DNA from: an uncultured delta proteobacterium
Lineage (GTDB): Bacteria; Desulfobacterota; Binatia; JACPRU01
Length of the DNA: 64,000 bases
Direction of reading: 5' to 3'
Assembly: GCA_963745025.1 (NCBI GenBank)
Contig: CAVUWD010000020.1
Coordinates: 1-64,000, forward strand
In this document: positions 329 through 4,617 of the stretch, piece by piece
Layout of the letters: each line of letters starts with the position of its first letter
Position numbering within the stretch: the stretch's first letter is position 1
Translations under genes and position numbers: made by a program
The notes under the pieces: model-generated
What the model was told of the DNA's origin: nothing
What the model saw: only the letters and a program-made list of their open reading frames with translations
Database searches by the model: none

Positions 329-814
329 ATGAAGGTGGTTGAGAAGAAGGCGAGGGATGAGATGATCGAGGAGGCCGGGGAAACGGAAGGAGCCCGTAGG
401 GCGACTGGAGTGTTCCCGGCCGGCGCGCCGCCGGCGGGGGCCACCCCCGACGCGGAGGTGGTGGCCAAGGCGGAGCGGCGGCGGTTCACGGCGGAGTACA
501 AGCGGCGGATCGTGCGCGAGGCGGATCGCTGCACGAAGTCCGGTGAGATCGGGGCACTGCTTCGGCGCGAGGGGCTGTACTCCTCGCATCTGGTGACCTG
601 GCGCGCCGCCCGTGACCGGGGCGAGCTCGAGGGGCTGTCGGCGAAGAAGCGTGGACCGAAGGTGGCACCGCCCGATCCGCAGCAGAAGAAAATCGCCGAG
701 CAGGAGCGCGAGATCGCGCGATTGACCAAGCGCGCTGAGCGAGCGGAGGGGCTGGTGGAGCTCCAAAAAAAACTCGCAACTCTTCTGGGGACCCCACTCG
801 AGAGCGAGAAGTGA
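329..814 (+). CDS. IS3-family transposase OrfA (HTH + coiled coil)
   Basis: RRRFTAEYKRRIVREAD...GALLRREGLYSSHL motif. A8 slippery run at 765-772 whose -1 frame is open into OrfB. Confidence 0.9.
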   Translation: MKVVEKKARDEMIEEAGETEGARRATGVFPAGAPPAGATPDAEVVAKAERRRFTAEYKRRIVREADRCTKSGEIGALLRREGLYSSHLVTWRAARDRGELEGLSAKKRGPKVAPPDPQQKKIAEQEREIARLTKRAERAEGLVELQKKLATLLGTPLESEK

Positions 815-1214
815 CCATCGAGACGGTGCGCGAGGCAGGAGCGACGCTCGGGATTGCGCCGGCGTGCGCGGCGCTCGGCCTGCCGACGGCGACCTACTAC
901 CGGCGGATCGGGCCGAAGCCACCGCTCGAACTTCGTCCGAGTCCGCCTCGTAAGCTCGCCGCCCCCGAGCGCGCGGCCGTGCTCGAGGTCCTGCACGAGA
1001 CGCGCTTCGTCGATCTGGCTCCGCCCCAGGTCTTCGCCCAGCTTCTGGACGAGGAGCGCTTTCTCTGCTCGGAGCGGACGATGTACCGGATCCTGGAGGA
1101 GAATCACGAGGTGCGGGAGCGCCGCGATCAGCTGCGCCACCCGCAGTACCCGGCTCCCGAGCTCCTGGCCACCGCACCGAACCAGGTCTGGAGCTGGGAC
1201 ATCACGAAACTGCT
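811..1214 (+). pseudogene. IS3 OrfB transposase, N-terminal part up to WSWDITKL
   Basis: CSERTMYRIL...PELLATAPNQVWSWDITKL. Homology stops abruptly at 1214. Confidence 0.9.
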
Positions 1215-1714
1215 CGAAACCGTCACATACTGCGCAGTTTCAGCGGTCGGTAACGATTCACTATCGTTGGCACCCCCTGTTCGGCGAGATGCTCGCGGTC
1301 AAGCGACCGAGTTCATCTGCTGACGGCGGTCGAGCGTTCATCTGCCTTCTTCCGGACGGGACGTGGGGAGCTATCCCCGAGTGGGTGACTTCGCGGGAGC
1401 GCTGTAGCCGCCTCAGGTTGGTGGACACTCCCGAGGTCTCCCTCGGCGCCCTTCTCGAGCTCCGGGCGTGCCTTGCAGAATTGCCGTCGCAGAGCGCTCC
1501 CGCAAAGATCCGAGTCGACAGCGCTTGTGGCGGAAAGGAGACTCGGAGGAATGGCGAGGACAAAGGCAGAGGGTCAATTGGACCTGAGGTGGACCGAGGA
1601 GATGCAGTGGGAGGACGTGCCGTCGCCGATTCGGGAGCGAATCCGAGATCAGCTCGGCGAGCTGTTGCGAGGCGCCGCAGTACGCAGCGGGCGCACCGAG
1701 GAGGTGGGCGATGA
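1215..1714 (+). CDS. Start-less accessory ORF (DUF5372/Y4bD-like, 'HYRWHPLFG'); its start is supplied by the element right end on circularisation
   Basis: Open frame SKPSHTAQFQRSVTIHYRWHPLFGEMLAV...LPDGTWGAIPEW runs from the junction with no ATG/SD before the conserved motif. Stop overlaps the recombinase ATG (ATGA 1711-1714). Confidence 0.6.
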
Positions 1715-1721
1715 CCAGTAG
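1551..1721 (+). CDS. Small 56-aa accessory protein preceding the recombinase
   Basis: Purine-rich SD-like sequence before ATG 1551. MARTKAEGQLDLRWTEEMQWEDVPSPIRERIRDQLGELL; overlaps the recombinase start. Confidence 0.55.
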   Translation: MARTKAEGQLDLRWTEEMQWEDVPSPIRERIRDQLGELLRGAAVRSGRTEEVGDDQ

Positions 1722-3812
1722 AGAAAAGATTCGTCCGCAGCATCTCGCCCGATCGGCACTCGTCTACATCCGTCAATCCACGCTTGGTCAGGTACGGCAT
1801 AACCACGAGAGCCAGCGTCGCCAATACGAGCTCGCTGAGAAGGCTCGAGAGCTCGGCTGGAGCGAGGTGGTCGTCATCGATGACGATCTCGGTAAGTCGG
1901 GAGCCAGTAGCGCCGGCCGGGTCGGTTTTCAGCGACTGGTTGCTACGGTAAGCCTTGGGCAAGCCGGCGCGGTGTTTAGCCTGGAGGTCTCGCGCCTCGC
2001 CCGCAATAACCGGGACTGGTACCAGCTCTTGGACCTTTGCGGGCTGGTGGACACCCTGATCATTGATGCCGAAGGCATCTACGATCTGCGCCAGCTCAAC
2101 GATCGACTTCTGCTGGGACTCAAGGGGACCATCAGTGAAGCGGAGCTCGGCTGGATCCGCCAACGCGCCTACGAGGGGCTTCTCGCCAAGGCGCGGCGAG
2201 GGGAGCTGATCCTGCGCGTCCCGGTGGGCTACGTGCGCGCTCGAGACGGACGCATCGAGAAACATCCTGACCAGCGAGTGCAAGAGGCCATTGGTTCGGT
2301 CTTTCGGAAATTCACCGAACAGGGGAGCGTTCGCCAGACTCTTCTCTGGTTTCGACAAGAGCAGATCCGCCTCCCGGCCCTCGAGCAGGACCATGCGTGG
2401 GGAGATCGGATCGTGTGGCGCTTGCCGCTGTACCATACGCTCCTGCGCATGCTGCAAAATCCCATCTATGCGGGCGCCTACGCTTTCGGCAGGACGACGA
2501 CGCGGACGCGGGTATCGACGGAGCGGCGCGCAAGACCGGAGGGCACCGCAGTGAGTCGAGTGAGTGGATCGCCTTGCTGCGCGACCACCACGAGAGCTAT
2601 ATCGGCTGGGAAACTTACGAGCGAAATCGGGAGCTGATCGCTCACAACGCACAGAGCTGGGGGCCGATGGGGATCCGAGGAGCGGCGCGGCAAGGCCCAA
2701 GTCTACTGGCGGGTCTACTGCGGTGTGGTCGCTGTGGGAGGCGGCTGTACGTTCGCTACGCGGGAGGCACCAAGATGGCGTGCCGCTACAGCTGCCGCGG
2801 TGGCGTGATGAATCACGGTGTCCAAGGCGGCTGCATCTCGTTTGGGGGACTTCGCGTCGATGAAGCTATGGAGCGAGAGGTCCTGCGGGTGCTCATGCCG
2901 GCAGCGATCGAGGCGGCGCTTGAGAGCGCCGAGAAGGCGGGAAACGACATCGAGACGGCTCGCAGCGCTCTGGAGTTGGAGCTCCGCGAGGCGCGCTACG
3001 AGGCAGCGCGAGCCGGACGGCAATACGACGCCGTCGAGCCCGAAAATCGCTTGGTGGCTGATACTCTGGAGCAGCGCTGGAACGCTGCGCTGCAGAGAGT
3101 AGGAGCCCTGGAGAGCCGACTCGAGGATCTCAGGCGCTCCCAGCCCCAGCACGTCCCCCCGGATCGAGCCACTCTTCTTGAGCTGGCTCAGGACTTCCCT
3201 GCAGTTTGGAATGACCCCGCGACGGATCACCGGACCAAGAAGCGGCTGATCCGTCTCCTCGTGGAAGAGATCGTCGCTGGACTTCCAACCGAAGACACAG
3301 TCGAGCTGGTGATTCACTGGAAAGGTGGCAAGCACACGATTCTCCGCGTACCGAAGAACCGACCAGGACAGCACCGCTACACCACGAGTCGCGAGGTCGT
3401 GGACGTGGTCAGAGACCTCGCCCGCTGTCTCCCGGATGGTCAGATTGCCCGCGTGCTAAATCGTCTCGGGTATCAAACCGGCGCCGGCAACACGTGGACA
3501 CAGGATCGGGTCGTGGGTCTGCGCAGCTATCACCAAATTCCGATCTTCGATCCCGAAGTCGAACGAGGGACCACACTCACCATTGCTCAGGCTGCCAGCG
3601 AGTTGGGCGTGAGCGAGATGACCGTGCGACGAATGATTGTCAGGGGTCTCCTGCCCGCGAAGCAGCCTGTTCCCTATGCACCGTGGTCCATTCAGCGCGA
3701 AGCCCTCAATGCCGGCGCCGTGCAGCAGGCCATCAAGGCGGTGAAGCGAGGCCGTCCCGTTCCGCAAACAGCTCCGACAGGACAGCTCAATCTAATGAAT
3801 TCAGGCACATAG
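1711..3812 (+). CDS. Large serine recombinase (~700 aa; resolvase, recombinase, Zn-ribbon, coiled coil, C-terminal HTH) with one frameshift near 2512
   Basis: YIRQST catalytic motif, DDDLGKSG, SRLARN, NPIYAG, LLAGLLRCGRCG. Two overlapping ORFs join with a single missing base (RTRV/IDGAARK). Confidence 0.9.
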
Positions 3813-3842
3813 CGAGGTGGGGCATTATGTCGCGAGAGCGCT

Positions 3843-4617
3843 TGGGCCGGCGAAGTGGACCTACTTCTACCTCTACGTGATCCTGGACATCTTCAGCCGC
3901 TATGTCGTGGGCTGGATGGTTGCCCACCAGGAGAGCGCGGCGCTGGCGAAGAAACTGATCGAGCAGAGCTGCACCCGGCAGGGAATCGTTGCGGGCCAGC
4001 TCACGCTGCATGCCGACCGCGGGTCCTCGATGAAGTCGAAGCCCGTGGCACTGCTGCTCTCGGACCTCGGGGTGACCAAGACCCACTCGCGGCCCTACGT
4101 CTCGAACGACAACCCCTTCTCCGAGGCGCAGTTCAAAACCATGAAGTACCGTCCCGAGTTTCCCGAGCGCTTCGGATCGATCCAGGACTCGCGCAGCTTC
4201 GGCCACGTCTTTTTCCCTTGGTACAACACCGAGCATCGTCACTCGGGGCTCGGGATGCTCACGCCCCACGAGGTCCACTACGGGCTTGCTGAGAAGCGGG
4301 TCGAGGCGCGGGCCCGAGTGCTCGCGGCTGCCTACGCCGCCCATCCCGAGCGCTTCGTCGCAGGGCTTCCGCAACCGCCGGCACTGCCGACCGAGGTCTG
4401 GATCAACAAGCCCACGGCGCCGCTCGCCGAGCCCAAGTACGTTTCGGATCCCGAGGTCGTGACGACCTTCGCGCTCAGAGCCCCGAACAGCCCCGCAGCG
4501 GACTCGACCCAGACCCAGGTATCCCCCCGAATCGGCACCGGTGAGCCATTCGCATCGATCGACAGCGGACTCCACAGAGCGGCCGTGGTGCCGCTCAACA
4601 CGGAGGATCTACACTAA
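3843..4617 (+). pseudogene. IS3 OrfB transposase, C-terminal DDE part
   Basis: LGPAKWTYFYLYVILDIFSRYVVGW...HADRGSSM...SNDNPFSEAQFKT. Confidence 0.9.

Follow-up and report, generated by a model that had tools for sequence, protein, structure and literature searches.

Expression that depends on the joined ends of a mobile element is already known from several systems. In Tn4451/Tn4453 (TnpX), ICEclc (Pcirc) and ICEKp1 (P3'end), joining of the ends is described as creating an expression signal that is missing when the element is integrated (PMC13023037). The element analysed in this study is a 2628-bp insert at positions 1215-3842 of a 64,000-nucleotide stretch (contig CAVUWD010000020.1, positions 1 to 64,000, hereafter the window) from an uncultured delta proteobacterium of the Binatia, and it resembles Tn4451 in that both carry a large serine recombinase (LSR). 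The junction-promoter systems differ from it in that a promoter is assembled or brought upstream and the recombinase is switched on, whereas in the family of the window element the split falls inside a coding sequence, with a Shine-Dalgarno sequence (SD) and five codons on one side and the body on the other, and an accessory protein, here called ORF1, would be switched on. Lyras and Rood (2000) is reportedly a further reference on junction-promoter systems.

In the 'suicidal' integrases of the SSV type, found in archaeal viruses and plasmids, the recombination site lies inside an open reading frame (ORF) of the element and the gene is whole only when the element is circular (PMC7253208). There, according to the abstract, an archaeal tyrosine recombinase is itself cut in mid-gene, whereas the bacterial serine recombinase of the window family stays whole and only the translation start of its partner is separated. 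Integration-dependent immunity of mycobacteriophages (BPs and relatives) has attP within a regulatory gene, and integration alters the protein (PMC4557955). In this phage system, as abstracted, the 3' end of a repressor is exchanged and both forms are translated; in the window family, by contrast, the 5' end is removed, one state should yield no protein, and the element is the size of an insertion sequence (IS). The IS607 family and the gin element in gerE of Bacillus cereus are minimal mobile or excisable DNAs with a serine recombinase as main gene, and their abstracts report no junction-split gene (PMC4058570, PMC6188088, PMC5595907). Within the titles and abstracts covered, neither the present family nor a start codon split off by attP is described. 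To these known systems the family adds a hidden partner protein of a serine recombinase, together with its striking targets.

The features that make up the split gene in the window are as follows.

1215-1714, plus strand: body of ORF1, from the last two bases of codon 6 to the stop codon TGA at 1712-1714, without a start codon of its own.
About 1217-1500: DUF5372-like N-terminal domain of ORF1, followed by an unconserved tail that overlaps ORF2, a second small frame described below.
1711-3812, plus strand: LSR gene, read here in two frames (1711-2637 and 2397-3812) with a 1-nt deletion near 2514.
3814-3829, plus strand: SD of ORF1 (GAGGTG, 3814-3819) and its ATG (3827-3829), 17 nt past the first base of the LSR stop, a position kept in the family.
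1213-1214, no strand: crossover dinucleotide CT at the left junction (attL), with a 3-nt overlap of the flanks; the core begins 55 nt before the W codon across the family.
3841-3842, no strand: crossover dinucleotide CT at the right junction (attR).

The LSR gene ends with TAG at 3810-3812, ahead of the SD. In the integrated state the ATG at 3827 gives just 17 codons, to a TGA, while the frame of ORF1 at the left end (p mod 3 = 2) is open to the TGA at 1712-1714, which overlaps the LSR start at 1711 as ATGA. Joining 3842 to 1215 puts the right-end ATG in frame with ORF1 and gives a reading of 16 + 500 nt, or 171 aa. This ATG stands 14 nt before the 2-bp crossover, which in the relatives as well as in the window is placed within codons 5-6 of ORF1, with the SD, the ATG and five codons in the right arm. 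The locus therefore works like the systems with attP within a gene, the crossover lying inside an ORF of the element that integration splits, a likeness of operation and not of family membership. All of these positions (LSR stop, SD, ATG, 17-codon integrated reading, 171 aa, ATGA overlap) had been put forward in the original prediction and were correct when rechecked on the sequence; what it had overlooked were the frameshift of the LSR gene near 2514, ORF2, and the missing Pfam call on the window ORF1. The split start and the exact ends are thus confirmed. We consider it probable that ORF1 is translated only from the joined ends, binds the LSR and thereby reports the excised state, a reading built on comparison of sequences and on a structural model.

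The ends of the element were fixed against the host IS, whose parts are listed here.

329-814, plus strand: orfA of the host IS3-type sequence (context), Pfam HTH_Tnp_1, E 1.5e-06; an uninterrupted copy of the IS lies on contig C13 of the same genome (G000:C13).
811-1214, plus strand: 5' part of the host orfB, the left half of the target site; its frame resumes at 3840-4617, and the uninterrupted copy L002 reads across the site.
3843-4617, plus strand: 3' part of the host orfB, the right half of the target site, Pfam rve (3e-16) and rve_3 (6.9e-13).

The IS3-type sequence spans 329-4617, and its orfB is split by the 2628-bp insert, counting one copy of the core. When the genome was searched with window 1150-3900, the second copy on G000:C13 was found to match 1150-1214 and 3840-3900 at 100% and side by side, the two flank matches overlapping by 3 nt, GCT (window 1212-1214). 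Because this uninterrupted copy lies in the same genome, the element ends and the length are exact, and the 2-bp crossover is placed at CT by the geometry of the family. Apart from the shared core, the insertion duplicated no part of the target, and the insert is the sole copy of the element in its genome. In X1, X2, X5 and X8, four of 24 public runs listed, searched as assembled Logan contigs against window 900-4200, joints that omit exactly 2628 bases were found, which represent empty IS3-type sites. A joint of right end to left end was not among the joints listed for these four runs, and as contigs cannot reveal rare circles this counts neither for nor against. The conservative insertion, the equal 2-bp core at both junctions with no longer duplication, and the imperfect inverted arms are the features of an LSR element. 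Multiple copies with differing flanks in the family, and the empty sites, hint at excision to a circle and at re-integration, both of which we infer to be the work of the LSR.

A search of 61 related genomes gave ORF1 relatives in five besides the window's own, and the match in one of the five (G051, locus L014) was then judged spurious and set aside. The ends of three relatives were fixed by where the interrupted host gene resumes, with no rule taken from the window. One of them (G046, 51% identity) lies antisense in istB, inside the Walker A codons, with core GA, and the other two (G023, 36%, and G026, 28%) lie in IS91-type transposase genes, at two different places, with cores TC and AT. 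All three have the ATG exactly 14 nt ahead of the core. Joining their ends gives an open reading in the frame of ORF1, in which the Trp of an invariant WHPL is residue 24, as in the window. The string of stop, SD and ATG is kept nearly letter for letter in G046 and G026; in G023 no SD stands out clearly.

When one genome per species was scanned with an alignment of the ORF1 N-terminal domain (A1), 145 relatives were found, of which 80 loci were analysed, and a scan of an independent collection of metagenome contigs yielded more than 440, of which again 80 loci were analysed. Carriers in the genome set belong to Myxococcota-like lineages, Binatia, Acidobacteriota, Gemmatimonadota and the Alpha-, Beta- and Gammaproteobacteria, cultured Azospirillum, Caballeronia, Paraburkholderia and Gemmobacter among them. 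The length from the predicted left end to WHPL is constant in 77 of the 79 loci with the motif, the two deviations being one base (L038) and one codon (L069, shorter), and in genomes with several copies the flanks diverge right at the predicted cores on both sides. With the left core read at a fixed distance to the WHPL codons, a search past the LSR stop gave an ATG followed by this same dinucleotide at +14/+15 in 40 of 53 loci, as against 2-16 loci for the other offsets within 6-25. A random frame among relatives, which the original prediction had said would speak against it, was not what we observed; the frame is constant beyond chance.

Fifty-seven loci of the genome set retain an LSR end and 55 of these are testable (two contigs end too early). 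The geometry holds in 47 of the 55, comprising 45 strict cases, L069 (one codon shorter, in frame) and L043 (motif further downstream). Six others have the SD and ATG in the canonical place with unequal cores, five by one letter (L024, L032, L079, L084 and L094) and one with a rearranged left flank (L071). By the same script the geometry holds in 30 of 39 loci of the metagenome set, L164 being doubtful among the 30. The proposal that a right-end SD and ATG would be in frame with the left ORF across homologues circularised in silico is thus borne out over several phyla. A right end ahead of ORF1, as a joined form would show, was seen in 0 of the 80 metagenome loci, the one flagged (L164) being a chance GTG. 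Three called proteins, P0004 (on a 2766-bp contig), P0032 and P0127, have W at residue 24 and an N-terminus resembling the junction-coded one, and may derive from contigs with joined ends; eight further called proteins have W at residue 25. The interpretation given in the original prediction is supported by the comparison of the loci.

Cores that differ by one letter occur in about one in eight elements (the five genome loci named above together with L106, L109, L128, L136 and L142). This suggests integration at imperfectly matching sites or later mutation, and such copies may be unable to excise cleanly. The G026 element (L013 2165-2845) is a short form of 681 bp in an IS91-type gene, with both ends, the SD and ATG, ORF1 and a C-terminal remnant of the LSR; from its sequence it looks like a non-autonomous derivative of the kind known as miniature inverted-repeat transposable elements.

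No start codon is available to ORF1 at the left end itself in the form of ATG. In the 17 codons from the left end to the W codon (codons 7-23), neither an ATG nor a stop was found in any of 131 distinct left ends, and the upstream flank closes the ORF1 frame without an ATG in 97 of the 131. The claim that the left ORF has no start ahead of its HPL motif stands on this count, and the conserved internal start that would have argued for translation in the integrated state did not appear.

The pieces of the LSR in the window match Resolvase (1.5e-22), Recombinase (4.1e-07), Zn_ribbon_recom (3.9e-07) and a C-terminal HTH_17 in Pfam. Its 97%-identical copy in a related genome (L015) is intact at 699 aa and matches Resolvase, Recombinase, Zn_ribbon_recom and HTH_17, the layout being that of an LSR with a resolvase catalytic domain, a recombinase domain and a zinc beta-ribbon with embedded coiled coil. 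Relative to L015 the window LSR is one base short near 2514, and the extra C behind 2513 is also present in a relative of about 95% identity from public run X1. The family elements are compact (about 2.6 kb) and consist of ORF1, ORF2 and an LSR of about 690-700 aa with an extra C-terminal helix-turn-helix (HTH) of the excisionase type. This HTH (HTH_17; TIGR01764 'excise', E 1.8e-05) lies with an invariant HWxGGxH in a C-terminal extension of about 200 residues past the usual core (residues ~500-699, L015 4995-7091; window 3200-3809).

1551-1721, plus strand: ORF2, 56 aa, with its own SD, in frame +1 relative to ORF1 and ending 7 nt past the LSR start.

The frame of ORF2 has the clearest peak of third-position G+C in the region, and ORF2 shares its sequence with the last ~55 codons of ORF1, which are read in a different frame. 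ORF2 is conserved with a GGAGG-type SD, which sits within the reading frame of ORF1, in 15 of the 15 lineages listed. It has no Pfam or NCBIfam family, and the protein atlas gives just unnamed clusters below 0.9. A programmed frameshift fusing ORF1 to ORF2 was considered and dropped, given that ORF2 has its own SD in all these lineages.

Wherever the LSR end is intact, the distance from the LSR stop to the ATG of ORF1 is between -1 and +18 nt, and the ATG overlaps this stop as ATGA in six loci and as TAATG in three. At the other end of the gene, 108 of 133 distinct ORF1s stop on a TGA that overlaps the LSR start codon, as ATGA, GTGA or TTGA. The frame of ORF1 stays open for about 70 codons across ORF2, though those codons are unconserved and predicted to be disordered. 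Across 35 lineages, 103 stops fall in the third frame of the tail, which is open in just four of them, these 35 having been picked for the ATGA-type overlap, which makes the count of stops in the ORF1 frame zero by construction. As the unconserved tail frame stays open to the LSR start, selection seems to act on where the ribosome stops, and the placement of the ORF1 stop seems to be a signature of translational coupling. The overlaps of stop and start at both ends of ORF1 fit the 'circular translationally coupled operon' that had been proposed. A scan of the integrated element for sigma-70 promoters gave 0 sites, which says little for this organism.

The N-terminal domain of ORF1 (residues ~10-90) was predicted by AlphaFold2 at a per-residue confidence (pLDDT) of 89-95 as four strands and helices forming a small beta-barrel, followed by a disordered tail. 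The description of ORF1 as 'DUF5372-like' holds at the level of the family. PF17342 matches 13 of 37 ORF1 relatives (best 5.3e-07), hhalign of A1 against a bona fide DUF5372 member (L089, 86 bits) gives 78% probability with E 1.8e-05, and all 30 top matches in the protein atlas are DUF5372 clusters at 0.92. For the window ORF1 itself the description does not hold in Pfam, where DUF5372 (PF17342) gives no match even at E<=10. By these sequence comparisons ORF1 is a divergent relative of DUF5372 and no formal member, and the titles and abstracts covered contain nothing on DUF5372 or PF17342. A PDB sequence search with ORF1 returned nothing (best E 0.67), and Foldseek returned no match at E<=0.001, the nearest being Tudor/SH3-like barrels with a Tudor domain as best (E 0.036).

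A second, different element was observed at L089 (1-3170, minus strand), in the same IS91-type gene. It carries a canonical DUF5372 ORF (2857-3170; PF17342, 86 bits), then a gene for an HTH protein and serine recombinase genes. This ORF has no Met in the ~110 codons upstream of its HPL motif, and the split-start layout may extend to canonical DUF5372 genes.

Recombination directionality factors (RDFs) of serine integrases, such as phiC31 gp3 and Bxb1 gp47, act in the phage systems through the zinc-ribbon and coiled-coil region of the integrase. A complex model of the L015 LSR with ORF1 residues 1-95 scored 0.69, the best of three controls scoring 0.00; among solved complexes 58 of 80 attain this mark, among mismatched pairs 2 of 110, counts that are only rough here because own alignments were used. 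The runs have at least 78% of their contacts in common, with a partner pLDDT of at least 73. Contacts were modelled at LSR residues 338-345, 390-407, 484-499, 509-522 and 534-544 and at ORF1 residues 18-21 (WHPL) and 65-89. In the modelled interface the WHPL and the helices of ORF1 face the zinc ribbon, both coiled-coil feet and the invariant HWxGGxH of the LSR, and invariant LSR residues in it are C339, C342, W537, G539, G540 and H542 (A3). ORF1 thus resembles an RDF in being a small element-encoded protein predicted to bind its integrase near the zinc-ribbon and coiled-coil base; no relation in sequence or fold was found. An RDF is needed while the element is integrated, whereas ORF1 could be made only after excision, so any setting of direction by ORF1 should be reversed.

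That ORF1 is made from the joined ends only and yet plays no part in recombinase control, serving instead in circle maintenance or acting on the host or the target IS, is in our view unlikely. The generic character of the barrel, with a Tudor domain as best structural match, the lack of any matched family with known function and the dependence of the predicted binding on a model all leave room for such a role. They are countered by the distance of the model score from its controls, by the presence of the invariant WHPL and of invariant LSR residues in the interface, and by the makeup of the element, which has no other genes and in which the overlaps of start and stop lock ORF1 to the LSR at both ends.

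In the probable reading, in which ORF1 reports the excised state to the LSR, the integrated element would leave ORF1 untranslated, and transcripts leaving the LSR gene would enter flanking DNA. On excision the joined ends would form a closed ring of coupled cistrons, from the LSR stop to the ORF1 start and from the ORF1 stop to the LSR start. ORF1 would then be made solely in the circle, by ribosomes that leave the LSR and restart on ORF1, and these ribosomes would cross the SD and start of ORF2 before stopping on the LSR start. Docked at the coiled-coil base, ORF1 would tell the recombinase 'I am excised'. In the version that we prefer, though with the least confidence, ORF2 and the LSR might favour excision, with ORF1 replacing or repressing ORF2 and pushing the circle towards integration; this direction is proposed because an ORF1 present only after excision could not be needed for it. 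We hold only tentatively to a broader version, in which the coupled ring makes ORF1 as a state-sensing switch that overrides ORF2, so that the same LSR excises when integrated and integrates when free, and in which the elements are hyperparasites, the site of each lineage being tuned, as far as its core dinucleotide, to a conserved motif in a gene of another transposon (IstB Walker A, IS66 DDE, IS91, IS3). In this version the connection of a start codon to its gene would be the sole store of information on the state of the element. Were the reading correct, it would represent a new kind of state sensing by a mobile element, in which a coding sequence is joined to a ribosome-binding site in place of a junction promoter, so that the protein would be an all-or-none sign of the excised state. 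Should ORF1 determine the direction of the LSR, it would also be of practical interest, since serine integrases are genome-engineering tools limited by directionality control. The predictions are directly testable in cultured, harmless soil bacteria, and carriers in culture include Sinorhizobium meliloti RU11/001 and SM11, Azospirillum brasilense and Caballeronia sordidicola.

The right-end ATG also belongs to the recombination site, the arms of which are given here.

1215-1250, plus strand: left arm of the recombination site, with the mirrored GCAnnATG in its reverse complement; the CAT of this motif encodes the invariant His of ORF1.
3806-3840, plus strand: right arm of the recombination site, which also encodes codons 1-5 of ORF1, as read from the arm consensus and the junction reading.

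GCAnnATG is present in both arms at positions -21 to -12 relative to the core, where the arm-to-arm identity is 0.7-1.0 over 30 lineages, and H4 of ORF1 is invariant in A2. The original prediction had placed the ATG inside the recombinase half-site, and the mirrored copy agrees with this. On this ground the right-end ATG and the G-rich run could be a recombinase-binding sequence only, with ORF1 produced while the element is integrated, whether by read-in out of flanking DNA or through an internal or non-ATG start, and the junction frame a by-product of a rigid site. We regard this as improbable, although the conservation of the ATG is weak evidence taken alone, as the mirrored GCAnnATG may be conserved for DNA recognition. 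In its favour, an in-frame flank ATG is present in 18 of the 131 left ends, and two lineages have no clear SD. GTG or TTG does occur at codons 15-20 in 20 of the 131, but these candidates are unconserved Val or Leu codons, the other 111 have no ATG, GTG or TTG at all, and all the candidate internal starts come after the invariant H, Y and WHPL. Read-in from the flank cannot be general, because the insertions are found in either orientation to the target gene and in unrelated targets. The purine-rich SD run (-29 to -21) is specific to the right arm and lies outside the mirrored site, the ATG keeps an operon-like distance from the LSR stop, sometimes as ATGA, and the one indel seen between site and WHPL is a whole codon (the 3-nt deletion of L069, which kept the frame). 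The right-arm SD, the distance of ATG to LSR stop and the whole-codon indel are features that DNA binding does not explain.

Several observations weigh against translation of ORF1 from the joined ends and its role as reporter to the LSR. The ATG within the mirrored site could be kept for DNA recognition alone, and the fixed geometry of the site would keep the frame constant by descent. The GTG and TTG codons of the 20 left ends offer possible starts. Two genome loci (L023 and L026, 2 of 55) have no canonical right end, and among the nine metagenome misses five have a canonical SD and ATG with a one-letter core difference, one contig ends at the core and three show nothing in the stretch inspected, which leaves 3-4 of the 39 without a canonical right end. 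The L012 and L089 lineages have no recognisable SD. The loci are kin and amount to about 30 lineages as judged by eye, not 94 independent cases. The LSR of the window itself is frameshifted, so that the window element may be a dead copy or an assembly error; death of the copy is conceivable because the LSR is frameshifted and this is the only copy in the genome. The circles, the transcript across the junction and the protein are read throughout from comparison, and the contact of the ORF1 N-terminal domain with the zinc-ribbon and coiled-coil base is one that we infer from the model score. The sign of the ORF1 effect and the role of ORF2, that is, an ORF1 favouring integration against an ORF2 favouring excision, are guesses.

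Whether the left end codes at all can be judged from its codons, whose entropy by position is 1.10 / 0.94 / 1.54 over 34 lineages; in those of Y-x-W-H-P-L the first two positions are fixed and the third is free. As third positions vary most, the stretch is coding, with selection at the level of the protein upstream of any possible internal start. A non-coding left end, conserved as a cis-acting DNA site and open through high G+C, is very improbable and was already disfavoured: frames do open easily at 62-70% G+C and the first codons overlap the recombinase half-site, but this periodicity, the PF17342 and hhalign matches to DUF5372, the confident predicted fold and the tail, in which the third frame is full of stops and the ORF1 frame always reaches the LSR start, are those of a protein gene.

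Most members of the family were found to sit in genes of other transposons, as the window element does in an IS3 orfB. The targets include istB (IS21), where the Walker A codons are hit antisense, a conserved stretch close to the end of the IS66 DDE domain, and IS91-type genes. In istB the core lies in the codon before GxGK and differs among lineages. Joined flanks restore open frames through conserved motifs, with Pfam matches to IstB_IS21 (3 of 3 tested), DDE_Tnp_IS66 (4 of 4), Y2_Tnp with Zn_Tnp_IS91, and DUF559; since the restored targets read through such motifs, the boundaries are exact to the base. The core dinucleotide (GG, CT, GA, GT or AT) was observed to track the codon preceding GxGK in the istB allele that is hit. 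The right flank of L084 encodes a catalytic-domain motif of another serine recombinase; the target here appears to be the recombinase gene of a second element. With 145 relatives in species genomes, more than 440 in metagenomes and 215 plasmid records, mostly rhizobial, the family is common, and it clearly exemplifies mobile DNA that lives on other mobile DNA.

Single-base indels recur in the assembly, one of them breaking the LSR (~2514) and several separating the copies of the host IS (L002 1900-1990, near the end of contig C13). Genuine decay or errors in the consensus may account for them. Upstream of the left end, at window 815-1214, the ORF1 frame stays open through the host IS to the orfA stop, which is in the same frame, which we attribute to chance, the DNA being rich in G+C. 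Read-through from the orfA of this IS was considered as a source of ORF1 and dropped, other family members lying antisense in their targets.

Gene finders cannot see ORF1, because it has no start in the chromosome. Callers merge flank and ORF1, for example in P0001 and P0064, and in 121 called relatives with the motif the W residue falls anywhere from 4 to 197, as expected where callers borrow whatever start the flank offers. ORF1 thus represents an unannotated protein family partnered with serine recombinases, which RefSeq leaves out in Sinorhizobium and Azospirillum plasmids. On the two plasmids checked, RefSeq annotates the LSR, sometimes ORF2, and not ORF1. Neither S. meliloti RU11/001 pSmeRU11d (L175) nor the A. 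brasilense plasmid (L176) has an ORF1 gene in RefSeq; in the latter, an antisense 'hypothetical protein' is called over ORF1, and ORF2 is called in part only.

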